Shown: piece by piece, positions 1-50,763 of the stretch
How positions within the stretch are numbered: position 1 is the stretch's first letter
Layout: each line of letters starts with the position of its first letter
NCBI RefSeq assembly: GCF_001677475.2
Contig: NZ_CP015229.1
Length of the DNA: 64,000 bases
Direction: 5' to 3' (one strand)
Source of the DNA: Escherichia coli
GTDB lineage: Bacteria; Pseudomonadota; Gammaproteobacteria; Enterobacterales; Enterobacteriaceae
Position numbers and translations under genes: made by a program
Notes under the pieces: model-generated
Database searches by the model: none
What the model was told of the DNA's origin: nothing
Seen by the model: the letters and a program-made list of their open reading frames with translations, nothing else

Positions 1-1150
<1,150 letters not shown>

Positions 1151-1243
1151 ACAACGCCGAAGCTGTTTTGGCGGATTGAGAGAAGATTTTCAGCCTGATA
1201 CAGATTAAATCAGAACGCAGAAGCGGTCTGATAAAACAGAATT

Positions 1244-1363
1244 TGCCTGGCGGCCGTAGCGCGGTGGTCCCACCTGACCCCATGCCGAACTCAGAAGTGA
1301 AACGCCGTAGCGCCGATGGTAGTGTGGGGTCTCCCCATGCGAGAGTAGGGAACTGCCAGGCAT
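1244..1363 (+). rRNA. rrfB: 5S ribosomal RNA
   Basis: 120-nt sequence UGCCUGGCGGC...GGAACUGCCAGGCAU, canonical enterobacterial 5S. Confidence 0.97.
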
Positions 1364-1366
1364 CAA

Positions 1367-1410
1367 ATAAAACGAAAGGCTCAGTCGAAAGACTGGGCCT
1401 TTCGTTTTAT
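1367..1410 (+). terminator. rrn operon T1 intrinsic terminator
   Basis: Hairpin AAACGAAAGGCUCAGUCGAAAGACUGGGCCUUUCGUUUU followed by U-rich tract; matches the classic rrnB T1 sequence used in cloning vectors. Confidence 0.9.
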
Positions 1411-1543
1411 CTGTTGTTTGTCGGTGAACGCTCTCCTGAGTAGGACAAATCCGCCGGGAGCGGATTTGAACGTTGCGAAGCAACGGCCCGGAGGGTGGCG
1501 GGCAGGACGCCCGCCATAAACTGCCAGGCATCAAATTAAGCAG

Positions 1544-1580
1544 AAGGCCCGGTCGGAAGACTGGGCCTTTTTGCGTTTCT
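1544..1580 (+). terminator. rrn operon T2-like intrinsic terminator
   Basis: Hairpin GGCCCGGUCGGAAGACUGGGCC followed by UUUUUGCGUUU; preceded by a short copy of the 5S 3' end (CUGCCAGGCAUCAAAU). Confidence 0.75.
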
Positions 1581-1665
1581 ACAAACTCTCCCTGTCGTCA
1601 TAACTACAAGCCATCCCCCCACAGATACGGTAAACTAGCCTCGTTTTTGCATCAGGAAAGCAGCT

Positions 1666-2694
1666 ATGAACCACTCCTTAAAACCCTGGAACACATTTGG
1701 CATTGATCATAATGCTCAGCACATTGTATGTGCCGAAGACGAACAACAACTACTCAATGCCTGGCAGCATGCAACCGCAGAAGGGCAACCCGTTCTTATT
1801 CTGGGTGAAGGAAGTAATGTACTTTTTCTGGAAGACTATCGCGGCACGGTGATCATCAACCGGATCAAAGGTATCGAAATTCATGATGAACCTGATGCGT
1901 GGTATTTACATGTAGGAGCCGGAGAAAACTGGCATCGCCTGGTAAAATACACTTTGCAGGAAGGTATGCCTGGTCTGGAAAATCTGGCATTAATTCCTGG
2001 TTGTGTCGGCTCATCACCTATCCAGAATATTGGTGCTTATGGCGTAGAATTACAGCGAGTTTGCGCTTATGTTGACTGTGTTGAACTGGCGACAGGCAAG
2101 CAAGTGCGCTTAACTGCCAAAGAGTGCCGTTTTGGCTATCGCGACAGTATTTTTAAACATGAATACCAGGACCGCTTCGCTATTGTAGCCGTAGGTCTGC
2201 GTCTGCCAAAAGAGTGGCAACCTGTACTAACGTATGGTGACTTAACTCGTCTGGATCCTACAACAGTAACGCCACAGCAAGTATTTAATGCGGTGTGTCA
2301 TATGCGCACCACCAAACTCCCTGATCCAAAAGTGAATGGCAATGCCGGTAGTTTCTTCAAAAACCCTGTTGTATCTGCCGAAATGGCTAAAGCATTACTG
2401 GCTCAATTTCCAACAGCACCAAATTACCCCCAGGTGGATGGTTCAGTAAAACTGGCAGCAGGTTGGCTTATCGATCAGTGCCAGCTAAAAGGGATGCAAA
2501 TGGGTGGGGCTGCGGTGCACCGTCAACAGGCGTTAGTTCTCATCAATGAAGGCAATGCAAAAAGCGAAGATGTGGTGCAACTGGCACACCATGTAAGACA
2601 AAAAGTGGGTGAAAAATTTAATGTCTGGCTTGAGCCTGAAGTTCGCTTTATTGGTGCATCAGGTGAAGTTAGCGCAGTGGAGACGATTTCATGA
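1666..2694 (+). CDS. murB: UDP-N-acetylenolpyruvoylglucosamine reductase
   Basis: 342-aa ORF, ATG start, matches recalled MurB; 4-bp overlap with birA. Confidence 0.96.
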
Positions 2695-3656
2695 AGGATA
2701 ATACCGTTCCGCTGAAATTAATCGCGCTGTTAGCGAATGGCGAATTTCACTCTGGTGAGCAGTTGGGTGAAACGTTAGGAATGAGCCGGGCGGCTATTAA
2801 TAAACACATTCAGACACTGCGTGACTGGGGCGTTGATGTCTTTACCGTTCCGGGTAAAGGATACAGCCTGCCTGAGCCTATCCAGTTACTTAATGCTGAA
2901 CAGATATTGGGTCAGCTGGATGGCGGTAGTGTAACTGTGCTGCCAGTGATTGACTCCACGAATCAGTACCTTCTTGATCGTATCGGAGAGCTTAAATCGG
3001 GCGATGCCTGCGTTGCAGAATACCAGCAGGCTGGCCGTGGTCGCCGGGGTCGGAAATGGTTTTCGCCTTTTGGCGCAAACTTATATTTGTCGATGTTCTG
3101 GCGTCTGGAACAAGGCCCGGCGGCGGCGATTGGTTTAAGTCTGGTTATCGGTATCGTGATGGCGGAAGTATTACGCAAGCTGGGTGCAGATAAAGTTCGT
3201 GTTAAATGGCCTAATGACCTCTATCTGCAGGATCGCAAGCTGGCAGGCATTCTTGTGGAGCTGACTGGCAAAACCGGCGATGCGGCGCAAATAGTCATTG
3301 GAGCCGGGATCAACATGGCAATGCGTCGTGTTGAAGAGAGTGTCGTTAATCAGGGGTGGATCACGCTGCAGGAAGCGGGGATCAATCTCGATCGTAATAC
3401 GTTGGCGGCCATGCTAATACGTGAATTACGCGCGGCGCTGGAACTCTTCGAACAAGAAGGATTGGTACCTTATCTTTCGCGCTGGGAAAAGCTGGATAAT
3501 TTTATTAATCGCCCAGTGAAACTTATCATTGGTGATAAAGAAATATTTGGCATTTCACGCGGAATAGACAAACAGGGCGCTTTATTGCTTGAGCAGGATG
3601 GAATAATAAAACCCTGGATGGGCGGTGAAATATCCCTGCGTAGTGCAGAAAAATAA
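2691..3656 (+). CDS. birA: Biotin-[acetyl-CoA-carboxylase] ligase / bio operon repressor
   Basis: 321-aa ORF with N-terminal HTH and biotin ligase GRGRRGR motif; ATGA overlap with murB stop. Confidence 0.96.
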
Positions 3657-3657
3657 G

Positions 3658-3682
3658 AAGGGGAGCATTAGCTCCCCTGTAA
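3658..3682. terminator. Bidirectional intrinsic terminator between convergent birA and coaA
   Basis: Palindrome AAGGGGAGC-AUUA-GCUCCCCU flanked by A/T-rich runs on both sides. Confidence 0.7.
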
Positions 3683-3683
3683 A

Positions 3684-4634
3684 TTATTTGCGTAGTCTGA
3701 CCTCTTCTACCGCATGATTAGCACTTTTCGTCAGGATTAAACTGGCGCGCTCGCGAGTAGGTAGAATATTTTGCTTTAAGTTCAGCCAGTTGATCTCTTT
3801 CCACAATGTCATGGCTGTCTTAATCGCTTCTTCTTTAGTTAATTTCGCGTAGTTATGAAAATAGGAATCCGGGTCTGTAAAAGCCCCTTCGCGGAATTTC
3901 AGAAAACGGTTGATATACCACGTCTGAAGTAAGTCTTCCGGTGCATCAACATATATCGAAAAATCGACAAAATCAGAAACAAATACATGATGTGGATCGT
4001 GTGGATAATCCATCCCGCTCTGTAAGACATTTAACCCTTCAAGAATTAAAATATCAGGCTGAACAACAGTTTTATCTCCATCCGGGATCACATCATAAAT
4101 AAGATGCGAGTAAACAGGGGCTGTAACGTTTGGCACGCCGGATTTGAGATCGGAAACAAACTTCACCAGGCGATGCATATCATACGATTCCGGGAAGCCT
4201 TTCTTCTTCATCAGACCACGTTCTTTCAGAACCTGATTAGGGTGAAGGAAGCCATCTGTAGTGATCAGTTCAACACGACGATGTTCCGGCCAACGGCTTA
4301 ATAGCGCCTGCAATACACGGGCGGTTGTACTTTTCCCCACCGCGACACTACCAGCAATACTGATAATGTAAGGAATGCGTTGCCCGTTGGTACCAAGAAA
4401 CTGTTCCAGAACTGCCTGACGGCGCAGATTCGAGCTTATATAGAAGTTCAGCAAACGTGACAGAGGTAAATAGATCTCGGCAACTTCTTCTAACGAGAGA
4501 TCTTCATTAATACCTTTGAGACGGGCGATCTCATCTTCCGATAACGTCATAGGTACGGAATCACGCAGAGCTGCCCACTGGTTGCGGTCAAACTGTAGGT
4601 AAGGCGTCATTAACGTTTGCTCTTTTATACTCAT
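3684..4634 (-). CDS. coaA: Pantothenate kinase (type I)
   Basis: ORF track gives 323 aa; start set to internal ATG giving 316 aa ([15 protein letters not shown]...), P-loop GSVAVGKST. Confidence 0.93.
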
Positions 4635-4951
4635 AAGCATGTTTCTGGCGGTCATAGCTCTATCGGCAAGCGATATTTGCCATGGCGCGTCACAGTTCTG
4701 TTGAATGGGTCAATGGGCAGGAGGGTAACACCAGATGGGGAGGAATAATAAGAAAAAATCTCTCCCAGGAAGCTATCGTTGAAAAGCAATGTGACAGATA
4801 TTCCATCCGATAAAAAGAATTATGGTTTAGCAGGAGCGCATTGTTGAGCACAATGATGTTGAAAAAGTGTGCTAATCTGCCCTCCATTCGGCTGTTTCTT
4901 CATCGTGTCGCATAAAATGTGACCAATAAAACAAATTATGCAATTTTTTAG

Positions 4952-4980
4952 TTGCATGAACTCGCATGTCTCCATAGAAT
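4952..4980 (+). promoter_or_regulatory. Sigma70 promoter of the thrU-tyrU-glyT-thrT-tufB operon
   Basis: -35 TTGCAT, 17-bp spacer, -10 TAGAAT about 15 nt upstream of thrU; AT-rich UP-like tract immediately upstream. Confidence 0.6.
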
Positions 4981-4994
4981 GCGCGCTACTTGAT

Positions 4995-5070
<76 letters not shown>

Positions 5071-5078
5071 TCAAGTCC

Positions 5079-5163
<85 letters not shown>

Positions 5164-5279
5164 ATTTCGGCCACGCGATGGCGTAGCCCGAGACGATAAG
5201 TTCGCTTACCGGCTCGAATAAAGAGAGCTTCTCTCGATATTCAGTGCAGAATGAAAATCAGGTAGCCGAGTTCCAGGAT

Positions 5280-5354
<75 letters not shown>

Positions 5355-5360
5355 AGATGT

Positions 5361-5436
5361 GCTGATATAGCTCAGTTGGTAGAGCGCACCCTTGGTAAGG
5401 GTGAGGTCGGCAGTTCGAATCTGCCTATCAGCACCA
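5361..5436 (+). tRNA. thrT: tRNA-Thr (anticodon GGU)
   Basis: 76-nt sequence GCUGAUAUAGCUCAGUUGGUAGAGC...CUAUCAGCACCA. Confidence 0.95.
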
Positions 5437-5514
5437 CTTCTTTTCTCCTTCCTGTTTTTTCCTTCTGTTTATTGCATTCAACAAGTCGGGCATGTTGCCT
5501 GGTTGATGTGGTGA

Positions 5515-6735
<1,221 letters not shown>

Positions 6736-6763
6736 TTGCCGATAACATTTGACGCAATGCGCA

Positions 6764-6795
6764 CTAAAAGGGCATCATTTGATGCCCTTTTTGCA
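6764..6795 (+). terminator. tufB intrinsic terminator
   Basis: Hairpin AAAAGGGCAUCAUUUGAUGCCCUUUUUG. Confidence 0.8.
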
Positions 6796-6964
6796 CGCTT
6801 TCGTACCAGAACCTGGCTCATCAGTGATTTTCTTTGTCATAATCATTGCTGAGACAGGCTCTGTTGAGGGCGTATAATCCGAAAAGCTAATACGCGTTTC
6901 GATTTGGTTTGCCTCGCGATCGCGGGGTGAAAATGTTTGTAGAAAACTTCTGACAGGTTGGTTT

Positions 6965-7348
6965 ATGAGTGCGAATACCGAAGCTCAAGGAAGCGGGCGC
7001 GGCCTGGAAGCGATGAAGTGGGTCGTTGTGGTGGCATTGCTCCTGGTGGCGATTGTCGGCAACTATCTTTATCGCGACATTATGCTGCCGCTGCGTGCGC
7101 TGGCCGTAGTAATTCTGATTGCTGCAGCGGGTGGTGTCGCGCTGTTAACGACAAAAGGTAAAGCTACCGTTGCTTTTGCCCGTGAAGCGCGTACCGAAGT
7201 CCGTAAGGTCATTTGGCCGACTCGCCAGGAAACATTGCACACCACGCTGATTGTGGCTGCGGTTACCGCAGTAATGTCACTGATCCTGTGGGGACTGGAT
7301 GGTATTCTGGTTCGCCTGGTATCCTTTATCACTGGCCTGAGGTTCTGA
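6965..7348 (+). CDS. secE: Protein translocase subunit SecE
   Basis: 127-aa ORF with three TM segments; immediately precedes nusG. Confidence 0.96.
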
Positions 7349-7349
7349 G

Positions 7350-7895
7350 ATGTCTGAAGCTCCTAAAAAGCGCTGGTACGTCGTTCAGGCGTTTTCCGGT
7401 TTTGAAGGCCGCGTAGCAACGTCGCTGCGTGAGCATATCAAATTACACAACATGGAAGATTTGTTTGGTGAAGTCATGGTACCAACCGAAGAAGTGGTTG
7501 AAATCCGTGGCGGTCAGCGTCGCAAAAGCGAACGTAAATTCTTCCCTGGCTACGTCCTCGTTCAGATGGTGATGAACGACGCGAGCTGGCACCTGGTGCG
7601 CAGCGTACCGCGTGTGATGGGCTTCATCGGTGGTACTTCCGATCGTCCTGCGCCAATCAGCGATAAAGAAGTCGATGCGATTATGAACCGCCTGCAGCAG
7701 GTTGGTGATAAGCCGCGTCCGAAAACGCTGTTTGAACCGGGTGAAATGGTCCGTGTTAATGATGGTCCGTTCGCTGACTTCAACGGTGTTGTTGAAGAAG
7801 TGGATTACGAGAAATCTCGTCTGAAAGTGTCTGTTTCTATCTTCGGTCGTGCGACCCCGGTAGAGCTGGACTTCAGCCAGGTTGAAAAAGCCTAA
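7350..7895 (+). CDS. nusG: Transcription termination/antitermination factor NusG
   Basis: 181-aa ORF with NGN and KOW regions. Confidence 0.97.
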
Positions 7896-7934
7896 CCCAG
7901 CGATCAAAAAAGCGGCGATTTAATCGTTGCACAA

Positions 7935-7975
7935 GGCGCGAGATTGGAATACAATTTCGCGCCTTTTGTTTTTAT
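7935..7975 (+). terminator. Intrinsic terminator/attenuator downstream of nusG
   Basis: Hairpin GGCGCGAGAUUGGAAUACAAUUUCGCGCC followed by UUUUGUUUUU. Confidence 0.7.
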
Positions 7976-7990
7976 GGGCCTTGCCCGTAA

Positions 7991-9190
<1,200 letters not shown>

Positions 9191-9602
9191 TGCCTTTACG
9201 TGGGCGGTGATTTTGTCTACAATCTTACCCCCACGTATAATGCTTAATGCAGACGTATATCCGAGATATTCGGGTTGTGGCAAGGCGGCAACTGAGTGAG
9301 TCGCCAGGAGCATAGCTAACTATGTGACTGGTGCGAACGAAGGAAGCCAACGCCGCCACAAGCTGAATAGCGACGGATAGAAAAGATTTGTTCGTTGGAG
9401 CCTGGCCTATCCAGGCCTCCGTCGAAGACCGCAGGAGTTTCGCAAGAAACTTAATCCCCTGCGTAGACGGTGACAGAACGCTAAGATTATTCTTTTATAT
9501 TCTGGCTTGTTTCTGCTCACCGTAATTAAGACGCTCTCTCCGTTTGGAGGAGTGAAGTGAGTTCCAGAGATTTTCTCTGGCAAACATCCAGGAGCAAAGC
9601 TA
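9191..9602 (+). promoter_or_regulatory. rplJL-rpoBC promoter and long structured leader (L10-L7/L12 autoregulatory region)
   Basis: 412-nt non-coding gap before rplJ at the position of the known L10 leader; no ORF of 60 aa or more on the sense strand. Confidence 0.6.
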
Positions 9603-10100
9603 ATGGCTTTAAATCTTCAAGACAAACAAGCGATTGTTGCTGAAGTCAGCGAAGTAGCCAAAGGCGCGCTGTCTGCAGTAGTTGCGGATTCCCGTGGCGT
9701 AACTGTAGATAAAATGACTGAACTGCGTAAAGCAGGTCGCGAAGCTGGCGTATACATGCGTGTTGTTCGTAACACCCTGCTGCGCCGTGCTGTTGAAGGT
9801 ACTCCGTTCGAGTGCCTGAAAGACGCGTTTGTTGGTCCGACCCTGATTGCATACTCTATGGAACACCCGGGCGCTGCTGCTCGTCTGTTCAAAGAGTTCG
9901 CGAAAGCGAATGCAAAATTTGAGGTCAAAGCCGCTGCCTTTGAAGGTGAGCTGATCCCGGCGTCTCAGATCGACCGCCTGGCAACTCTGCCGACCTACGA
10001 AGAAGCAATTGCACGCCTGATGGCAACCATGAAAGAAGCTTCGGCTGGCAAACTGGTTCGTACTCTGGCTGCTGTACGCGATGCGAAAGAAGCTGCTTAA
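9603..10100 (+). CDS. rplJ: 50S ribosomal protein L10
   Basis: 165-aa ORF. Confidence 0.98.
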
Positions 10101-10166
10101 TCGCAGTTATCTTTTTAACGCATTCGCTTACGTATAAACTTATTCTGATATTCAGGAACAATTTAA

Positions 10167-10532
<366 letters not shown>

Positions 10533-10570
10533 GCCAACCCTTCCGGTTGCAGCCTGAGAAATCAGGCTGA

Positions 10571-10602
10571 TGGCTGGTGACTTTTTAGTCACCAGCCTTT
10601 TT
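10571..10602 (+). terminator. rplL-rpoB intergenic attenuator (partial terminator)
   Basis: Hairpin GGCUGGUGACUUUUUAGUCACCAGCC followed by UUUUUG, in the 319-nt rplL-rpoB spacer. Confidence 0.75.
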
Positions 10603-10851
10603 GCGCTGTAAGGCGCCAGTAGCGTTTCACACTGTTTGACTACTGCTGTGCCTTTCAATGCTTGTTTCTATCGACGACTTAATATACTGCGACAGGACGT
10701 CCGTTCTGTGTAAATCGCAATGAAATGGTTTAAGCGTGATAGCAACAGGCATTGCGGAAAGTGTTCCATTTTCCGGTCAACAAAATAGTGTTGCACAAAC
10801 TGTCCGCTCAATGGACAGATGGGTCGACTTGTCAGCGAGCTGAGGAACCCT

Positions 10852-13800
10852 ATGGTTTACTCCTATACCGAGAAAAAACGTATTCGTAAGGATTTTGGTA
10901 AACGTCCACAAGTTCTGGATGTACCTTATCTCCTTTCTATCCAGCTTGACTCGTTTCAGAAATTTATCGAGCAAGATCCTGAAGGGCAGTATGGTCTGGA
11001 AGCTGCTTTCCGTTCCGTATTCCCGATTCAGAGCTACAGCGGTAATTCCGAGCTGCAATACGTCAGCTACCGCCTTGGCGAACCGGTGTTTGACGTCCAG
11101 GAATGTCAAATCCGTGGCGTGACCTATTCCGCACCGCTGCGCGTTAAACTGCGTCTGGTGATCTATGAGCGCGAAGCGCCGGAAGGCACCGTAAAAGACA
11201 TTAAAGAACAAGAAGTCTACATGGGCGAAATTCCGCTCATGACAGACAACGGTACCTTTGTTATCAACGGTACTGAGCGTGTTATCGTTTCCCAGCTGCA
11301 CCGTAGTCCGGGCGTCTTCTTTGACTCCGACAAAGGTAAAACCCACTCTTCGGGTAAAGTGCTGTATAACGCGCGCATCATCCCTTACCGTGGTTCCTGG
11401 CTGGACTTCGAATTCGATCCGAAGGACAACCTGTTCGTACGTATCGACCGTCGCCGTAAACTGCCTGCGACCATCATTCTGCGCGCCCTGAACTACACCA
11501 CAGAGCAGATCCTCGACCTGTTCTTTGAAAAAGTTATCTTTGAAATCCGTGATAACAAGCTGCAGATGGAACTGGTGCCGGAACGCCTGCGTGGTGAAAC
11601 CGCATCTTTTGACATCGAAGCTAACGGTAAAGTGTACGTAGAAAAAGGCCGCCGTATCACTGCGCGCCACATTCGCCAGCTGGAAAAAGACGACGTCAAA
11701 CTGATCGAAGTCCCGGTTGAGTACATCGCAGGTAAAGTGGTTGCTAAAGACTATATTGATGAGTCTACCGGCGAGCTGATCTGCGCAGCGAACATGGAGC
11801 TGAGCCTGGATCTGCTGGCTAAGCTGAGCCAGTCTGGTCACAAGCGTATCGAAACGCTGTTCACCAACGACCTGGATCACGGCCCGTATATCTCTGAAAC
11901 CTTACGTGTCGACCCAACTAACGACCGTCTGAGCGCACTGGTAGAAATCTACCGCATGATGCGCCCTGGCGAGCCGCCGACTCGTGAAGCAGCTGAAAGC
12001 CTGTTCGAGAACCTGTTCTTCTCCGAAGACCGTTATGACCTGTCTGCGGTTGGTCGTATGAAGTTCAACCGTTCTCTGCTGCGCGAAGAAATCGAAGGTT
12101 CCGGTATCCTGAGCAAAGACGACATCATTGATGTTATGAAAAAACTCATCGATATCCGTAACGGTAAAGGCGAAGTCGATGATATCGACCACCTCGGCAA
12201 CCGTCGTATCCGTTCCGTTGGCGAAATGGCGGAAAACCAGTTCCGCGTTGGCCTGGTACGTGTAGAGCGTGCGGTGAAAGAGCGTCTGTCTCTGGGCGAT
12301 CTGGATACCCTGATGCCTCAGGATATGATCAACGCCAAGCCGATTTCCGCAGCAGTGAAAGAGTTCTTCGGTTCCAGCCAGTTGTCTCAGTTTATGGACC
12401 AGAACAACCCGCTGTCTGAGATTACGCACAAACGTCGTATCTCCGCACTCGGCCCAGGCGGTCTGACCCGTGAACGTGCAGGCTTCGAAGTTCGAGACGT
12501 ACACCCGACTCACTACGGTCGCGTATGTCCAATCGAAACCCCTGAAGGTCCGAACATCGGTCTGATCAACTCTCTGTCCGTGTACGCACAGACTAACGAA
12601 TACGGCTTCCTTGAGACTCCGTATCGTAAAGTGACTGACGGTGTTGTAACCGACGAAATTCACTACCTGTCTGCTATCGAAGAAGGCAACTACGTTATCG
12701 CTCAGGCGAACTCCAACCTGGATGAAGAAGGCCACTTCGTAGAAGACCTGGTAACTTGCCGTAGCAAAGGCGAATCCAGCTTGTTCAGCCGCGACCAGGT
12801 TGACTACATGGACGTATCCACTCAGCAGGTGGTATCCGTCGGTGCGTCCCTGATCCCGTTCCTGGAACACGATGACGCCAACCGTGCATTGATGGGTGCG
12901 AACATGCAACGTCAGGCCGTTCCGACTCTGCGCGCTGATAAGCCGCTGGTTGGTACGGGTATGGAACGTGCTGTTGCCGTTGACTCCGGTGTAACTGCGG
13001 TTGCTAAACGTGGCGGTGTCGTTCAGTACGTGGATGCTTCCCGTATCGTTATCAAAGTTAACGAAGACGAGATGTATCCGGGTGAAGCAGGTATCGACAT
13101 CTACAACCTGACCAAATACACCCGTTCTAACCAGAACACCTGTATCAACCAGATGCCGTGTGTGTCTCTGGGTGAACCGGTAGAACGTGGCGACGTGCTG
13201 GCAGACGGTCCGTCCACCGACCTCGGTGAACTGGCGCTTGGTCAGAACATGCGCGTAGCGTTCATGCCGTGGAATGGTTACAACTTCGAAGACTCCATCC
13301 TCGTATCCGAGCGTGTTGTTCAGGAAGACCGTTTCACCACCATCCACATTCAGGAACTGGCGTGTGTGTCCCGTGACACCAAGCTGGGGCCGGAAGAGAT
13401 CACCGCTGACATCCCGAACGTGGGTGAAGCTGCGCTCTCCAAACTGGATGAATCCGGTATCGTTTACATTGGTGCGGAAGTGACCGGTGGTGACATTCTG
13501 GTTGGTAAGGTAACGCCGAAAGGTGAAACTCAGCTGACCCCAGAAGAAAAACTGCTGCGTGCGATCTTCGGTGAGAAAGCGTCTGACGTTAAAGACTCTT
13601 CTCTGCGCGTACCAAACGGTGTATCCGGTACGGTTATCGACGTTCAGGTCTTTACTCGCGATGGCGTAGAAAAAGACAAACGTGCGCTGGAAATCGAAGA
13701 AATGCAGCTCAAACAGGCGAAGAAAGACCTGTCTGAAGAACTGCAGATCCTCGAAGCGGGTCTGTTCAGCCGTATCCGTGCTGTGCTGGTAGCCGGTGGC

Positions 13801-14880
13801 GTTGAAGCTGAGAAGCTCGACAAACTGCCGCGCGATCGCTGGCTGGAGCTGGGCCTGACCGACGAAGAGAAACAAAATCAGCTGGAACAGCTGGCTGAGC
13901 AGTATGACGAACTGAAACACGAGTTCGAGAAGAAACTCGAAGCGAAACGCCGCAAAATCACCCAGGGCGACGATCTGGCACCGGGCGTGCTGAAGATTGT
14001 TAAGGTATATCTGGCGGTTAAACGCCGTATCCAGCCTGGTGACAAGATGGCAGGTCGTCACGGTAACAAGGGTGTAATTTCTAAGATCAACCCGATCGAA
14101 GATATGCCTTACGATGAAAACGGTACGCCGGTAGACATCGTACTGAACCCGCTGGGCGTACCGTCTCGTATGAACATCGGTCAGATCCTCGAAACCCACC
14201 TGGGTATGGCTGCGAAAGGTATCGGCGACAAGATCAACGCCATGCTGAAACAGCAGCAAGAAGTCGCGAAACTGCGCGAATTCATCCAGCGTGCTTACGA
14301 TCTGGGCGCTGACGTTCGTCAGAAAGTTGACCTGAGTACCTTCAGCGATGAAGAAGTTATGCGTCTGGCTGAAAACCTGCGCAAAGGTATGCCAATCGCA
14401 ACGCCGGTCTTCGACGGTGCGAAAGAAGCAGAAATTAAAGAGCTGCTGAAACTTGGCGACCTGCCGACTTCTGGTCAGATCCGCCTGTACGACGGTCGCA
14501 CTGGTGAACAGTTCGAACGTCCGGTAACCGTTGGTTACATGTACATGCTGAAACTGAACCACCTGGTCGACGACAAGATGCACGCGCGTTCCACCGGTTC
14601 TTACAGCCTGGTTACTCAGCAGCCGCTGGGTGGTAAGGCACAGTTCGGTGGTCAGCGTTTCGGGGAGATGGAAGTGTGGGCGCTGGAAGCATACGGCGCA
14701 GCATACACCCTGCAGGAAATGCTCACCGTTAAGTCTGATGACGTGAACGGTCGTACCAAGATGTATAAAAACATCGTGGACGGCAACCATCAGATGGAGC
14801 CGGGCATGCCAGAATCCTTCAACGTATTGTTGAAAGAGATTCGTTCGCTGGGTATCAACATCGAACTGGAAGACGAGTAA
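10852..14880 (+). CDS. rpoB: DNA-directed RNA polymerase subunit beta
   Basis: ORF track gives 1353 aa from an upstream GTG/TTG; start set to ATG giving 1342 aa ([20 protein letters not shown]...). Confidence 0.97.
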
Positions 14881-14956
14881 TTCTCGCTCAAACAGGTCAC
14901 TGCTGTCGGGGTAAAACCCGGCAGCGGATTGTGCTAACTCCGACGGGAGCAAATCC

Positions 14957-17900
14957 GTGAAAGATTTATTAAAGTTTCTGAAAGCGCAGACTAAAACCGA
15001 AGAGTTTGATGCGATCAAAATTGCTCTGGCTTCGCCAGACATGATCCGTTCATGGTCTTTCGGTGAAGTTAAAAAGCCGGAAACCATCAACTACCGTACG
15101 TTCAAACCAGAACGTGACGGCCTTTTCTGCGCCCGTATCTTTGGGCCGGTAAAAGATTACGAGTGCCTGTGCGGTAAGTACAAGCGCCTGAAACACCGTG
15201 GCGTCATCTGTGAGAAGTGCGGCGTTGAAGTGACCCAGACTAAAGTACGCCGTGAGCGTATGGGCCACATCGAACTGGCTTCCCCGACTGCGCACATCTG
15301 GTTCCTGAAATCGCTGCCGTCCCGTATCGGCCTGCTGCTCGATATGCCGCTGCGCGATATCGAACGCGTACTGTACTTCGAATCCTATGTGGTTATCGAA
15401 GGCGGTATGACCAACCTGGAACGTCAGCAGATCCTGACTGAAGAGCAGTATCTGGACGCGCTGGAAGAGTTCGGTGACGAATTCGACGCGAAAATGGGTG
15501 CGGAAGCAATCCAGGCCCTGCTGAAGAGCATGGATCTGGAGCAAGAGTGCGAACAGCTGCGTGAAGAGCTGAACGAAACTAACTCCGAAACCAAGCGTAA
15601 AAAGCTGACCAAGCGTATCAAACTGCTGGAAGCGTTCGTTCAGTCTGGTAACAAACCAGAGTGGATGATCCTGACCGTTCTGCCGGTACTGCCGCCAGAT
15701 CTGCGTCCGCTGGTTCCGCTGGATGGTGGTCGTTTCGCGACTTCTGACCTGAACGATCTGTATCGTCGCGTCATTAACCGTAACAACCGTCTGAAACGTC
15801 TGCTGGATCTGGCTGCGCCGGACATCATCGTACGTAACGAAAAACGTATGCTGCAGGAAGCGGTTGACGCCCTGTTGGATAACGGTCGTCGCGGTCGTGC
15901 GATCACCGGTTCTAACAAGCGTCCTCTGAAATCTTTGGCCGACATGATCAAAGGTAAACAGGGTCGTTTCCGTCAGAACTTGCTCGGTAAGCGTGTTGAC
16001 TACTCCGGTCGTTCTGTAATCACCGTAGGTCCATACCTGCGTCTGCATCAGTGCGGTCTGCCGAAGAAAATGGCACTGGAGCTGTTCAAACCGTTCATCT
16101 ATGGCAAGCTGGAACTGCGTGGTCTTGCTACCACCATTAAAGCTGCGAAGAAAATGGTTGAGCGCGAAGAAGCTGTCGTTTGGGATATCCTGGACGAAGT
16201 TATCCGCGAACACCCGGTACTGCTGAACCGTGCACCGACTCTGCACCGTCTGGGTATCCAGGCATTTGAACCGGTACTGATCGAAGGTAAAGCTATCCAG
16301 CTGCACCCGCTGGTTTGTGCGGCATATAACGCCGACTTCGATGGTGACCAGATGGCTGTTCACGTACCGCTGACGCTGGAAGCCCAGCTGGAAGCGCGTG
16401 CGCTGATGATGTCTACCAACAACATCCTGTCCCCGGCGAACGGCGAACCAATCATCGTTCCGTCTCAGGACGTTGTTCTGGGTCTGTACTATATGACCCG
16501 TGACTGTGTTAACGCCAAAGGCGAAGGCATGGTGCTGACTGGCCCGAAAGAAGCAGAACGTCTGTATCGCTCTGGTCTGGCTTCTCTGCATGCGCGCGTT
16601 AAAGTGCGTATCACCGAGTATGAAAAAGATGCTAACGGTGAATTAGTAGCGAAAACCAGCCTGAAAGACACGACTGTTGGCCGTGCCATTCTGTGGATGA
16701 TTGTACCGAAAGGTCTGCCTTACTCCATCGTCAACCAGGCGCTGGGTAAAAAAGCAATCTCCAAAATGCTGAACACCTGCTACCGCATTCTCGGTCTGAA
16801 ACCGACCGTTATTTTTGCGGACCAGATCATGTACACCGGCTTCGCCTATGCAGCGCGTTCTGGTGCATCTGTTGGTATCGATGACATGGTCATCCCGGAG
16901 AAGAAACACGAAATCATCTCCGAGGCAGAAGCAGAAGTTGCTGAAATTCAGGAGCAGTTCCAGTCTGGTCTGGTAACTGCGGGCGAACGCTACAACAAAG
17001 TTATCGATATCTGGGCTGCGGCGAACGATCGTGTATCCAAAGCGATGATGGATAACCTGCAAACTGAAACCGTTATTAACCGTGACGGTCAGGAAGAGAA
17101 GCAGGTTTCCTTCAACAGCATCTACATGATGGCCGACTCCGGTGCGCGTGGTTCTGCGGCACAGATTCGTCAGCTTGCTGGTATGCGTGGTCTGATGGCG
17201 AAGCCGGATGGCTCCATCATCGAAACGCCAATCACCGCGAACTTCCGTGAAGGCCTGAACGTACTCCAGTACTTCATCTCCACCCACGGTGCTCGTAAGG
17301 GTCTGGCGGATACCGCACTGAAAACTGCGAACTCCGGTTACCTGACTCGTCGTCTGGTTGACGTGGCGCAGGACCTGGTGGTTACCGAAGACGATTGTGG
17401 TACCCATGAAGGTATCATGATGACTCCGGTTATCGAGGGTGGTGACGTTAAAGAGCCGCTGCGCGATCGCGTACTGGGTCGTGTAACTGCTGAAGACGTT
17501 CTGAAGCCGGGTACTGCTGATATACTCGTTCCGCGCAACACGCTGCTGCACGAACAGTGGTGTGACCTGCTGGAAGAGAACTCTGTCGACGCGGTTAAAG
17601 TACGTTCTGTTGTATCTTGTGACACCGACTTTGGTGTATGTGCGCACTGCTACGGTCGTGACCTGGCGCGTGGCCACATCATCAACAAAGGTGAGGCAAT
17701 CGGTGTTATCGCGGCACAGTCCATCGGTGAACCGGGTACACAGCTGACCATGCGTACGTTCCACATCGGTGGTGCGGCATCTCGTGCGGCTGCTGAATCC
17801 AGCATCCAGGTGAAAAACAAAGGTAGCATCAAGCTCAGCAACGTGAAGTCGGTTGTGAACTCCAGCGGTAAACTGGTTATCACTTCCCGTAACACCGAAC

Positions 17901-19180
17901 TGAAACTGATCGACGAATTCGGTCGTACCAAAGAAAGCTACAAAGTGCCTTACGGTGCGGTACTGGCGAAAGGCGATGGCGAACAGGTTGCTGGTGGCGA
18001 AACCGTTGCAAACTGGGACCCGCACACCATGCCGGTTATCACCGAAGTAAGCGGTTTTGTACGCTTTACTGACATGATCGACGGCCAGACCATTACGCGT
18101 CAGACCGACGAACTGACCGGTCTGTCTTCGCTGGTGGTTCTGGATTCCGCAGAACGTACCGCAGGTGGTAAAGATCTGCGTCCGGCACTGAAAATCGTTG
18201 ATGCTCAGGGTAACGACGTTCTGATCCCGGGTACCGATATGCCTGCGCAGTACTTCCTGCCGGGTAAAGCGATTGTTCAGCTGGAAGATGGCGTACAGAT
18301 CAGCTCTGGTGACACCCTGGCGCGTATTCCGCAGGAATCCGGCGGTACCAAGGACATCACCGGTGGTCTGCCGCGCGTTGCGGACCTGTTCGAAGCACGT
18401 CGTCCGAAAGAGCCGGCAATCCTGGCTGAAATCAGCGGTATCGTTTCCTTCGGTAAAGAAACCAAAGGTAAACGTCGTCTGGTTATCACCCCGGTAGATG
18501 GTAGCGATCCGTACGAAGAGATGATTCCGAAATGGCGTCAGCTCAACGTGTTTGAAGGTGAACGTGTAGAACGTGGTGACGTAATTTCCGACGGTCCGGA
18601 AGCGCCGCACGACATTCTGCGTCTGCGTGGTGTTCATGCTGTTACTCGTTACATCGTTAACGAAGTACAGGACGTATACCGTCTGCAGGGCGTTAAGATT
18701 AACGATAAACACATCGAAGTTATCGTTCGTCAGATGCTGCGTAAAGCTACCATCGTTAACGCGGGCAGCTCCGACTTCCTGGAAGGCGAACAGGTTGAAT
18801 ACTCTCGCGTCAAGATCGCAAACCGCGAACTGGAAGCGAACGGCAAAGTGGGTGCAACTTACTCCCGCGATCTGCTGGGTATCACCAAAGCGTCTCTGGC
18901 AACCGAGTCCTTCATCTCCGCGGCATCGTTCCAGGAGACCACTCGCGTGCTGACCGAAGCAGCCGTTGCGGGCAAACGCGACGAACTGCGCGGCCTGAAA
19001 GAGAACGTTATCGTGGGTCGTCTGATCCCGGCTGGTACCGGTTACGCGTATCACCAGGATCGTATGCGTCGCCGTGCTGCGGGTGAAGCTCCGGCTGCAC
19101 CGCAGGTGACTGCAGAAGACGCATCTGCCAGCCTGGCAGAACTGCTGAACGCAGGTCTGGGCGGTTCTGATAACGAGTAA
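14957..19180 (+). CDS. rpoC: DNA-directed RNA polymerase subunit beta'
   Basis: 1407-aa ORF starting GTG ([17 protein letters not shown]...), zinc-binding Cys cluster, NADFDGD active site. Confidence 0.98.
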
Positions 19181-19201
19181 TCGTTAATCCGAAAATAACG
19201 T

Positions 19202-19228
19202 AAAAACCCGCTTCGGCGGGTTTTTTTA
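19202..19228 (+). terminator. rpoC intrinsic terminator
   Basis: Hairpin AAAAACCCGCUUCGGCGGGUUUUUUUA 22 nt after the rpoC stop. Confidence 0.85.
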
Positions 19229-19261
19229 TGGGAGTTATTCAGAGGGCAAAGTCTTCACGGG

Positions 19262-19308
19262 AAATATTAAGAAAGGCAGGGCGAAACGAGGAAGAAGCTT
19301 TTCGCCCT
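19262..19308 (-). terminator. Putative terminator of the thi operon
   Basis: Minus-strand hairpin CAGGGCGAAA...UUUCGCCCUG followed by a U-rich tract downstream of the thiH stop. Confidence 0.4.
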
Positions 19309-19421
19309 GGACAACATTCCTGCTGACGGCACTACCATAAAAAAACACAACGCTTTCAACAACCTTGCGTTTTTCATCTTCCGGAGCTGCTCGGAATAAA
19401 TTTACGTTCTTACATTCCGTC

Positions 19422-20555
19422 TCATGGCCTTTGCGAGGCGCGTCCCAGATAGCTGTCCCAGTCTTTCCATACCGGCTGCAAACCCTGAGCGGTTAACGCG
19501 GCAGCAACCGCTTCCGGTCTGCGATCGTCGTGTGGTGAGAACTGTTCCAGCTCGGGGTGATTGTCGGCATAACCCCCTGGCTGCGTTTTCGAGAAGGCGC
19601 TGACGTTATTGATCGCCAGCGGAATAACGCGATCGCGAAACCACGGTGATTCCCGCGTGGAGAGTGACAGTTCAATCTCCGGTGCAAGCAGTCGGAAGGC
19701 GCAGATGGTTTGCACTAACTGGCGTTCATCCATAATCGACGCAGGCTCAATGCCGCCAGTACACGGGCGCAGGCGCGGAAAGGAGACAGAGTAACGGCTT
19801 TGCCAGTAATGCTGTTGCAGCCATAGCAAATGTTCGGCAACCATATAGCAGTCAACGCGCCAGCTGTCGGAAAGGCCAATTAGCGCGCCGAGGCCTATCT
19901 TATCAATCCCCGCACACCCCAGCCGATCCGGCGTTTCCAGCCGCCAGAAGAAGTCCTGTTTTTTGCCTTTCAGATGATGACGGGCATATGTCGCCTCGTG
20001 ATACGTCTCCTGATAAACCATCACCCCATCGAGACCAAGCTGTTTTAGCTCGGCATATTCCGCCTCCGCCAGCGGTTGCACTTCCAGCTGTAGTGAAGAG
20101 AACTGTTCACGCAGGGCAGGAAGATGACGACGAAAGTAATCCATCCCCACTTTCGCCTGATGTTCACCAGTGACTAATAGCAGATGTTCAAAGCCCATCT
20201 CCCGTATAGCGGCGCTTTCCCTGGCAATATCCGCTTCATCCAGCGTTTTGCGCTTGATGCGGTTGCTCATGGAAAATCCGCAGTACGTGCAGTCGTTAGC
20301 GCAAAGATTGGAAAGATAAAGCGGGACGTAAAGACTGACAACGTTGCCAAATCGTTGACGGGTCAGACGCTGCGCCCGTTGGGCCAGTGGTTCCAGATAG
20401 CCACTGGCGGCTGGCGATAACAGCGCCATCATATCGTCGCGGGTGAGTTGCGAGGCATTTAGCGCCCGCTCTACGTCAGCAGCCGTTTTGCTGTTGATAT
20501 GCAGGCGGATGTCGTCCCAGTCCAGTTGTCGCCAGCGATCGCTGAAGGTTTTCAT
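19422..20555 (-). CDS. thiH: 2-iminoacetate synthase (radical SAM, thiazole biosynthesis)
   Basis: 377-aa ORF with CxxxCxxC radical-SAM motif ([10 protein letters not shown]). Confidence 0.95.
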
Positions 20556-24794: not shown

Positions 24795-24960
24795 CCAAAA
24801 AGTTAAGGACGTGGCTTGTCAGACGACGGATGAAGCAAGAGACGATCGCCGCAGGGGCGATGCGATAGCAGATTAACTCTTGTTCCCTTCGCAGGTATTA
24901 GCCTGATCAGGTTCCGCGGATCCCGAATAAACGGTCTCAGCCAGTTAAGGCACTCCGACA
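24795..24960 (-). promoter_or_regulatory. TPP riboswitch (thi-box) in the thiC leader
   Basis: Minus-strand leader contains ...GGAGUGCCUUAACUGGCUGAGACCGUUUAUUCGGGAUCCGCGGAACCUGAUCAGGCUAAUACCUGCGAAGGGAACAAG..., carrying the conserved CUGAGA core and flanking helices of the TPP aptamer. Confidence 0.8.
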
Positions 24961-24984
24961 AGAAATTAGCCCCACACACGGGGC
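24960..24984 (-). terminator. Putative rsd terminator
   Basis: Minus-strand hairpin GCCCCGUGUGUGGGGC followed by UAAUUUCUU. Confidence 0.45.
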
Positions 24985-30612: not shown

Positions 30613-31989
30613 ATGCGTTTTATGCAACGTTCTAAAGACTCCTTAGCTAAATGGTTAAGCGCGATCCTCCCCGTGGTCATTGTTGGGCTGGTGGGGCTGT
30701 TTGCGGTGACTGTGATTCGCGATTATGGGCGCGAGACTGCCGCCGCCAGACAAACGCTGCTGGAAAAAGGCAGTGTACTTATCCGTGCTCTCGAATCCGG
30801 CTCGCGCGTCGGCATGGGGATGCGCATGCATCATGCGCAGCAGCAGGCATTACTGGAAGAAATGGCCGGGCAGCCTGGTGTACGTTGGTTTGCGGTCACG
30901 GATGAACAAGGAACAATCGTGATGCATAGCAACTCCGGCATGGTGGGAAAACAGCTTTATTCCCCGCAGGAAATGCAGCAGTTACATCCGGGAGATGAAG
31001 AAGCGTGGCGGCGGATCGATAGCGCAGACGGCGAGCCTGTTCTGGAAATTTATCGCCAGTTTCAACCGATGTTTGCTGCTGGAATGCACCGGATGCGCCA
31101 TATGCAGCAGTATGCCGCGACACCACAAGCAATTTTCATCGCTTTCGACGCCAGTAATATTGTGAGTGCCGAAGATCGTGAGCAGAGAAACACCCTGATT
31201 ATCCTTTTCGCCCTGGCGACGGTCTTGCTGGCAAGCGTATTGTCATTCTTCTGGTATCGCCGCTATCTGCGCTCGCGCCAGCTTCTACAAGATGAAATGA
31301 AGCGCAAAGAGAAGCTGGTGGCGCTGGGGCATCTTGCGGCAGGCGTTGCCCACGAAATCCGTAACCCACTTTCCTCGATTAAAGGACTGGCGAAATACTT
31401 TGCCGAGCGCGCGCCTGCAGGGGGAGAAGCGCATCAACTGGCGCAGGTGATGGCGAAAGAGGCCGACCGTTTAAACCGCGTGGTAAGCGAGTTGCTGGAA
31501 CTGGTTAAGCCAACGCATCTGGCTTTGCAGGCGGTGGATCTCAACACGCTGATTAACCACTCATTACAGCTGGTAAGCCAGGATGCAAACAGCCGGGAGA
31601 TCCAGTTACGCTTTACCGCCAACGACACATTACCGGAAATTCAGGCCGATCCGGACAGGCTGACTCAGGTCCTGTTGAATCTCTATCTCAATGCTATTCA
31701 GGCGATTGGTCAGCATGGCGTGATTAGCGTGACGGCCAGCGAAAGCGGCGCGGGCGTGAAAATTAGCGTTACCGACAGCGGTAAGGGAATTGCGGCAGAT
31801 CAGCTTGAAGCCATCTTCACCCCGTACTTCACCACCAAAGCCGAAGGCACCGGACTGGGGCTGGCGGTCGTGCATAATATTGTTGAACAACACGGTGGTA
31901 CAATTCAGGTCGCAAGCCAGGAGGGAAAAGGCGCAACGTTCACCCTCTGGCTTCCGGTCAATATTACGCGTAAGGACCCACAAGGATGA
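30613..31989 (+). CDS. zraS: Sensor histidine kinase of the ZraSR two-component system
   Basis: 458-aa ORF with TM N-terminus, H-box (HEIRNPL) and ATPase G-boxes. Confidence 0.93.
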   Translation: MRFMQRSKDSLAKWLSAILPVVIVGLVGLFAVTVIRDYGRETAAARQTLLEKGSVLIRALESGSRVGMGMRMHHAQQQALLEEMAGQPGVRWFAVTDEQGTIVMHSNSGMVGKQLYSPQEMQQLHPGDEEAWRRIDSADGEPVLEIYRQFQPMFAAGMHRMRHMQQYAATPQAIFIAFDASNIVSAEDREQRNTLIILFALATVLLASVLSFFWYRRYLRSRQLLQDEMKRKEKLVALGHLAAGVAHEIRNPLSSIKGLAKYFAERAPAGGEAHQLAQVMAKEADRLNRVVSELLELVKPTHLALQAVDLNTLINHSLQLVSQDANSREIQLRFTANDTLPEIQADPDRLTQVLLNLYLNAIQAIGQHGVISVTASESGAGVKISVTDSGKGIAADQLEAIFTPYFTTKAEGTGLGLAVVHNIVEQHGGTIQVASQEGKGATFTLWLPVNITRKDPQG

Positions 31990-36814: not shown

Positions 36815-38356
<1,542 letters not shown>

Positions 38357-38441
38357 CCTTAAAGAACTGTGCTTTGCAGTGCTCACACAGATTGTCTGAT
38401 AGAAAGTGAAAAGCAAGGCGTCTTGCGAAGCAGACTGATAC

Positions 38442-38517
38442 GTCCCCTTCGTCTAGAGGCCCAGGACACCGCCCTTTCACGGCGGTAACAGGGGTTCGAA
38501 TCCCCTAGGGGACGCCA
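38442..38517 (+). tRNA. gltV: tRNA-Glu (anticodon UUC) in the 16S-23S spacer
   Basis: 76-nt sequence GUCCCCUUCGUCUAGAGGCCCAGGACACCGCCCUUUCACGGCGGUAACAGGGGUUCGAAUCCCCUAGGGGACGCCA. Confidence 0.96.
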
Positions 38518-38710
38518 CTTGCTGGTTTGTGAGTGAAAGTCACCTGCCTTAATATCTCAAAATTCATCTTCGGGTGATGTTTGAGATATTTGCTCTTTAA
38601 AAATCTGGATCAAGCTGAAAATTGAAACACTGAACAACGAAAGTTGTTCGTGAGTCTCTCAAATTTTCGCAACACGATGATGAATCGAAAGAAACATCTT
38701 CGGGTTGTGA

Positions 38711-41612
<2,902 letters not shown>

Positions 41613-41709
41613 ACAACGCCGAAGCTGTTTTGGCGGATGAGAGAAGATTTTCAGCCTGATACAGATTAAATCGACAGGTCAGAACATGACGTGTTGATAA
41701 AACAGAATT

Positions 41710-41829
41710 TGCCTGGCGGCCGTAGCGCGGTGGTCCCACCTGACCCCATGCCGAACTCAGAAGTGAAACGCCGTAGCGCCGATGGTAGTGTGGGGTCTCC
41801 CCATGCGAGAGTAGGGAACTGCCAGGCAT
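41710..41829 (+). rRNA. rrfE: 5S ribosomal RNA
   Basis: 120-nt sequence identical to the 5S copy at 1244-1363. Confidence 0.97.
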
Positions 41830-41832
41830 CAA

Positions 41833-41876
41833 ATAAAACGAAAGGCTCAGTCGAAAGACTGGGCCTTTCGTTTTAT
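41833..41876 (+). terminator. rrn T1 intrinsic terminator (rrnE copy)
   Basis: Same hairpin and U-tract as at 1367-1410. Confidence 0.88.
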
Positions 41877-41983
41877 CTGTTGTTTGTCGGTGAACGCTCT
41901 CCTGAGTAGGACAAATCCGCCGGGAGCGGATTTGAACGTTGCGAAGCAACGGCCCGGAGGGTGCCAGGCATCAAATTAAGCAG

Positions 41984-42014
41984 AAGGCTCAGTCGGAAGA
42001 CTGGGCCTTTTTGC
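41984..42014 (+). terminator. rrn T2-like terminator (rrnE copy)
   Basis: Hairpin AAGGCUCAGUCGGAAGACUGGGCCUUUUUGC. Confidence 0.7.
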
Positions 42015-42032
42015 ATTGGCGCAGAAAATAAT

Positions 42033-42057
42033 GCCGGATGCGACGCTGGCGCGTCTG
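42033..42057. repeat. Truncated REP-like element
   Basis: GCCGGATGCGACGCTGGCGCGTC matches the 5' half of the REP consensus. Confidence 0.5.
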
Positions 42058-42089
42058 CTCCAGCTTACGCAGGCACGATAGGGGGCAGC

Positions 42090-46862: not shown

Positions 46863-50763
<3,901 letters not shown>

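Follow-up and report, generated by a model that had tools for sequence, protein, structure and literature searches.

Rifampicin-resistance positions in E. coli rpoB are grouped into three clusters, namely codons 507-533 (I), codons 563-572 (II) and codon 687 (III), and the known resistant alleles cited with them lie in the same gene and region as the sites examined here (PMC11084559). In E. coli, resistance to ribosome-targeting drugs is owed mainly to efflux, to covalently modified ribosomes or to altered antibiotics; rRNA resistance mutations are recessive, suppressed by the sevenfold redundancy of the rrn operons, and rarely the route to resistance (PMC4683628). The rifampicin-sensitive reference allele used here is rpoB of E. 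coli K-12 MG1655 (b3987, NP_418414.1). We compared it, and the K-12 rRNA genes rrsB, rrsE, rrlB and rrlE, with their counterparts in a 64,000-nt stretch of an E. coli chromosome (hereafter the window).

The rpoB gene in the window encodes the same 1342-residue protein as MG1655, including V146, residues 507-533, residues 563-572 and R687, and unlike the known resistant alleles it carries no resistance substitution. Judged from the DNA, the RpoB, 23S and 16S hot spots are almost certainly wild-type, drug-sensitive alleles, and the window an ordinary Escherichia chromosomal segment. In E. coli, wild type is the default at the drug sites of these three genes; this is already known biology and a routine finding.

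Drug-target sites in the window

The rpoB gene lies between rplL and rpoC in the rplKAJL-rpoBC operon, and its alignment to K-12 rpoB is gap-free and colinear from 10852 to 14880. Full-length colinear homology and operon context both identify the product as an E. coli-type RpoB. All 1342 of 1342 residues match MG1655, and the 25 nucleotide differences are synonymous, one of them being a CTG to TTG change at L511 in cluster I. In addition to the three clusters we considered V146, the N-terminal rifampicin-resistance site of RpoB.

[quoted passage not shown]
11287-11289, + strand: RpoB V146 (GTT), N-terminal rifampicin site; wild type
12370-12450, + strand: rifampicin-resistance cluster I, codons 507-533 (bounds from PMC11084559); wild-type protein sequence
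12382-12384, + strand: Leu511 codon TTG (CTG in K-12) in cluster I; silent, lineage-specific C to T change at 12382
12538-12567, + strand: rifampicin-resistance cluster II, codons 563-572 (definition from PMC11084559); wild type
12910-12912, + strand: rifampicin-resistance cluster III, R687 (CGT) (definition from PMC11084559); wild type

Within cluster I, the hot-spot codons read CAG at 12388 (Q513), GAC at 12397 (D516), CAC at 12427 (H526), TCC at 12442 (S531) and CTC at 12448 (L533). Direct reading, translation and identity to the K-12 protein agree that codons 507-533 are wild type with these five residues unchanged, as the preliminary description had proposed. Since the whole protein equals that of K-12, V146, codons 563-572 and R687 are wild type too; no substitution or in-frame indel was found in clusters I-III or at V146, and RpoB has no amino-acid difference at all. 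The match at the hot spot is part of full-length identity to the reference gene, not a chance match. Upstream, the rplL-rpoB intergenic region contains an Rfam match to P26 (10537-10598, + strand).

The window also holds two copies of the 23S macrolide site and one 16S gene. At its left edge are the last 1150 nt of a 23S gene and then a 5S gene, and a complete operon of 16S, tRNA-Glu, 23S and 5S lies at 36815-41827 (both from Rfam).

1-1150, + strand: 3' part of the 23S rRNA gene at the rrnB position, 23S nt 1755-2904; Rfam LSU match cut at its 5' end, and alignment to rrlB
302-310, + strand: 23S 2056-2064 GGAAAGACC, copy 1; A2058 at 304 and A2059 at 305, wild type
36815-38356, + strand: 16S rRNA gene at the rrnE position, 1542 nt; Rfam and alignment to rrsB
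38218-38230, + strand: 16S 1404-1416 CGTCACACCATGG, decoding site; G1405 at 38219 and A1408 at 38222, wild type
38711-41612, + strand: complete 23S rRNA gene at the rrnE position, 2902 nt; Rfam and alignment to rrlB
40764-40772, + strand: 23S 2056-2064 GGAAAGACC, copy 2; A2058 at 40766 and A2059 at 40767, wild type

GGAAAGACC, which starts at 2056 in rrlB, occurs exactly twice in the window (302-310 and 40764-40772), and CGTCACACCATGG, which starts at 1404 in rrsB, occurs once (38218-38230); neither was found on the minus strand of the window. The partial 23S copy begins at nt 1755 and still includes A2058 and A2059, so the claim that the macrolide site is wild type in both copies holds. G2057, A2058, A2059 and C2611 are present in both, with no allele of the kind that confers macrolide, lincosamide or streptogramin resistance. 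More broadly, both copies equal rrlB at 2032, 2057-2062, 2251-2252, 2447-2453, 2499-2505, 2534, 2572, 2576 and 2609-2611, while positions 745-754, 1067 and 1095 could be compared, and equal rrlB, in the complete copy only. The partial copy differs from rrlB only at 1865, 2211 and 2794-2802. The complete copy differs at 137/142, 305, 356/357, 541-552, 1171-1178, 1211, 1547, 1723-1735, 1865, 2211 and 2794-2802, none of which coincides with the drug-site positions checked. Compared with K-12 rrlB and rrlE, the checked drug-site nucleotides are therefore the same in each window copy that contains them, and the substitutions and indels fall elsewhere.

The 16S gene matches rrsB at 1537 of 1542 nt, with substitutions only at 79, 80, 89, 90 and 93 in helix 6 (window 36893-36907); these five positions differ from rrsE as well. 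The alignment to rrsB places A1408 at 38222, in line with the earlier reading of the decoding site as wild type. A1408, G1491, U1406 and U1495 are all present, with no aminoglycoside-resistant allele at these positions, and the gene equals the reference at 523-530, 794, 912, 926, 965-967, 1058, 1064, 1192, 1405-1409, 1491, 1495 and 1519. The 530 loop, the 790 loop and the other checked drug sites are thus shared with rrsB and rrsE, from which the window gene differs at the five helix-6 positions.

Both 5S genes carry C at position 12 (window 1255 and 41721), where K-12 rrfB and rrfE have A (GGCGGCCGTAG vs GGCGGCAGTAG). An Rfam match to StyR-44 (38595-38703, + strand) lies just upstream of the complete 23S gene.

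Several other drug targets are encoded in the window.

5551-6735, + strand: tufB (EF-Tu, kirromycin target); protein identical to K-12
8054-8482, + strand: rplK (L11, thiopeptide target); protein identical to K-12
14957-19180, + strand: rpoC, RNA polymerase beta' subunit; protein identical to K-12, with 31 nucleotide differences, all synonymous

The L1, L10, L7/L12, SecE, NusG and CoaA proteins are also identical to K-12, and a search for amino-acid changes relative to K-12 in RpoB, RpoC, TufB, L11, L1, L10, L7/L12, NusG and SecE returned none. TufB and RplK accordingly lack kirromycin-resistance and thiopeptide-resistance substitutions, respectively. Resistance to streptolydigin, switch-region inhibitors and microcin J25 comes through substitutions in RpoB or RpoC; as both subunits are identical to K-12, these sites would be covered as well.

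The essential genes rpoB, rpoC, tufB and rplK and the rRNA genes are under strong purifying selection and therefore keep, at each known resistance hot spot, the ancestral residues that permit drug binding. Rifampicin would then bind an RpoB pocket formed by residues 146, 507-533, 563-572 and 687, macrolides would contact the exit-tunnel bases A2058/A2059, and aminoglycosides would contact A1408/G1491 in helix 44, in each case as in K-12. Normal drug binding at the RpoB, 23S and 16S targets would thus be expected.

Window content and resistance encoded elsewhere

Gene by gene, the window was compared by blastn with E. coli K-12 MG1655 positions 4166000-4214000. The order is colinear with K-12 through murB, birA, coaA, tufB, secE, nusG, rplK, rplA, rplJ, rplL, rpoB and rpoC, and again through thiHGSFEC, rsd, nudC, hemE, nfi, yjaG, hupA, yjaH, zraPSR and purDH. 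The right-hand 22 kb (yjaB, metA, aceBAK, espL4, iclR, metH, yjbB, pepE and sorbose genes) has the arrangement seen in E. coli strain E300010. Only the 27 nt at 19233-19259 fail to align to either K-12 or E300010, and hence no acquired resistance gene or inserted DNA was found in the window.

Some local differences from K-12 were seen along the way. Between rpoC and thiH (19181-19421), yjaZ and the sRNA gene sroH are missing; rpoC likewise adjoins thiH in the E. coli strains listed at the top of the search. Between the 5S gene and yjaB (41828-42089), the phylogroup-typing marker yjaA is missing, as it is at that position in E300010. The 5' part of zraS (30613-31189), predicted to code for the kinase's N-terminal sensor portion, has strongly diverged from K-12; over its first 300 nt identity is 82%, with gaps, and blastn left the next 300 nt unaligned. 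The exact 458-aa ZraS protein is common in public assemblies (941 index blocks), in genomes about 98% identical, and its sensor domain is an allelic replacement relative to K-12. An intact 728-aa ORF (48577-50763, - strand) occupies the site of the annotated type III effector gene espL4 in E300010; the exact 728-aa EspL4 protein is not on record in a large gene-position index. A TPP riboswitch Rfam match (24867-24967, - strand) lies upstream of thiC.

The main alternative accepts these alleles and holds that the strain is resistant anyway, through mutant rRNA in other operons, the methyltransferases Erm, Cfr, ArmA/Rmt or NpmA, the enzymes Arr or Mph, aminoglycoside-modifying enzymes, or efflux. 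Erm, Cfr, ArmA/Rmt and NpmA methylate A2058, A2503, G1405 and A1408, respectively, leaving no trace in the DNA sequence; determinants such as efflux, Arr, Mph and aminoglycoside-modifying enzymes would be encoded outside the window, in other parts of the genome or on plasmids. Of a genome of about 5 Mb the window shows about 64 kb, and the prevalence of efflux and of ribosome or antibiotic modification in E. coli, along with the masking of target mutations by the seven rrn operons, also speaks for such a route (PMC4683628). Against this, the window holds no such resistance gene and gives no positive evidence for any determinant, and resistance encoded elsewhere would concern the phenotype rather than what the window contains. 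We consider this alternative unlikely, although it survives better than any other.

It does bear on how the wild-type alleles are to be described. The preliminary description took these loci to predict susceptibility, which goes too far; target mutation is excluded at the copies seen, but these represent only about two of the usual seven rrn operons, and a susceptible phenotype does not follow. The wording needs narrowing because of that fraction, because rRNA resistance mutations are recessive and seldom the way in which resistance arises (PMC4683628), because methylation is unreadable in DNA, and because other determinants would be encoded elsewhere.

The silent Leu511 codon and the source lineage

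Although cluster I is wild type as protein, its DNA is not that of the reference; the silent change at L511 had been overlooked in the preliminary description. Of 5420 complete E. coli genomes that gave a match, none has an identical copy of the 81-nt hot spot, and all are at most 98.8% identical to it. In a scan of GTDB species representatives, the 45-mer containing TTG was found exactly only in Trabulsiella odontotermitis and Tatumella saanichensis, from which it follows that the source lineage is not a separate species representative. An independent draft assembly, GCA_016118635.1, has the very same sequence as window positions 1188-12694 (100% identity), TTG511 included, and the hot-spot sequence with this codon is therefore no sequencing error.

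The best match among 5426 complete E. coli genomes reaches 99.5% identity over rpoB, 98.7% over the rpoC-thiH junction (18800-19800) and 97.7% over 41830-64000, and divergence is even along the window. Closer relatives exist among draft genomes; for six draft assemblies, GCA_016118635.1 and GCA_043014985.2 among them, identity is 99.9-100% over the stretches they cover within window positions 1164-12694. The exact MurB protein is also rare, being found in 31 index blocks and only a few draft assemblies. From the best-match identities and the evenness of divergence, the window comes from a divergent, poorly sampled Escherichia lineage that is absent from the collection of complete E. coli genomes searched.

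In the murB-birA region (1666-3656), MurB has seven amino-acid differences from K-12 (Y35H, S138C, T240M, S246A, A257V, I279M and D296G) and BirA has four, with no difference in the transcription and translation proteins encoded nearby. The MurB and BirA differences are at the level expected for lineage divergence.

Could the changes outside the resistance positions (TTG at L511, T1865C and A2211G in 23S, and the 16S helix-6 substitutions) themselves alter drug response, through translation of rpoB or ribosome structure? TTG511 does lie inside the hot spot and is absent from all 5420 of those complete genomes, and T1865C and A2211G are found in both 23S copies of the window. However, TTG511 leaves the protein unchanged, and this part of helix 6 is variable in the 16S genes of E. 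coli and Shigella. We also considered T1865C and A2211G as unusual variants and rejected this; 2731 E. coli records have one or more 23S copies with an identical 61-mer containing T1865C, and A2211G is present in E300010 as well. To our knowledge, neither 1865 nor 2211 is a drug-contact site. The two changes are best read as natural polymorphisms common to both 23S copies, and an effect on drug response is scarcely credible.

Equally negligible is the idea that the hot-spot numbering was mis-registered, with the true codons lying elsewhere or altered; the open frame does have an earlier ATG, its first, at 10819, which precedes the K-12 start by 11 codons, and counting from it would shift rpoB positions by 11, but the gap-free alignment places codon 507 at 12370, and a protein identical end to end gives the same conclusion under any registration. 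The numbering used earlier matches the correct start at 10852, and the codon-level alignment to K-12 revealed no mis-registered substitution. The earlier coordinates (12370-12450) are likewise exact for codons 507-533, but the 32-residue peptide quoted with them spans codons 507-538; it is five residues longer than those coordinates, running 15 nt past their end through GPGGL.

Very long antisense ORFs also overlap rpoB and rpoC on the - strand, at 11902-15090 (1062 aa), 15050-16591 (513 aa) and 16643-19054 (803 aa). The first crosses the hot spot in the rpoB codon register and ends at codon 351 (11902-11904), the sole TTA/CTA/TCA codon of rpoB. We rejected it as a gene; it is a shadow ORF arising from codon bias.

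Meaning of the wild-type alleles

As a negative annotation, the result excludes resistance by target mutation in the copies that the window shows, and 'no target mutation at these loci' is a better wording for such calls than 'susceptible'. TTG511 also argues for comparing hot spots as protein, given that nucleotide identity alone would flag a difference; a nucleotide-probe assay would score this hot spot as 'mutant' despite its wild-type protein.

The codon may also matter for how resistance arises in this lineage, and beyond these two effects none can be foreseen. Single second-base changes of CTG give Pro, Gln or Arg, while the same changes of TTG give Ser, a stop or Trp. L511P, L511Q and L511R are reportedly rifampicin-resistance substitutions, said to have been described by Jin and Gross in 1988 and Garibyan et al. 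in 2003. Tentatively, TTG511 would put these three substitutions beyond a single mutational step, and it is possible, if not probable, that the spectrum of spontaneous rifampicin resistance in this lineage might measurably differ.
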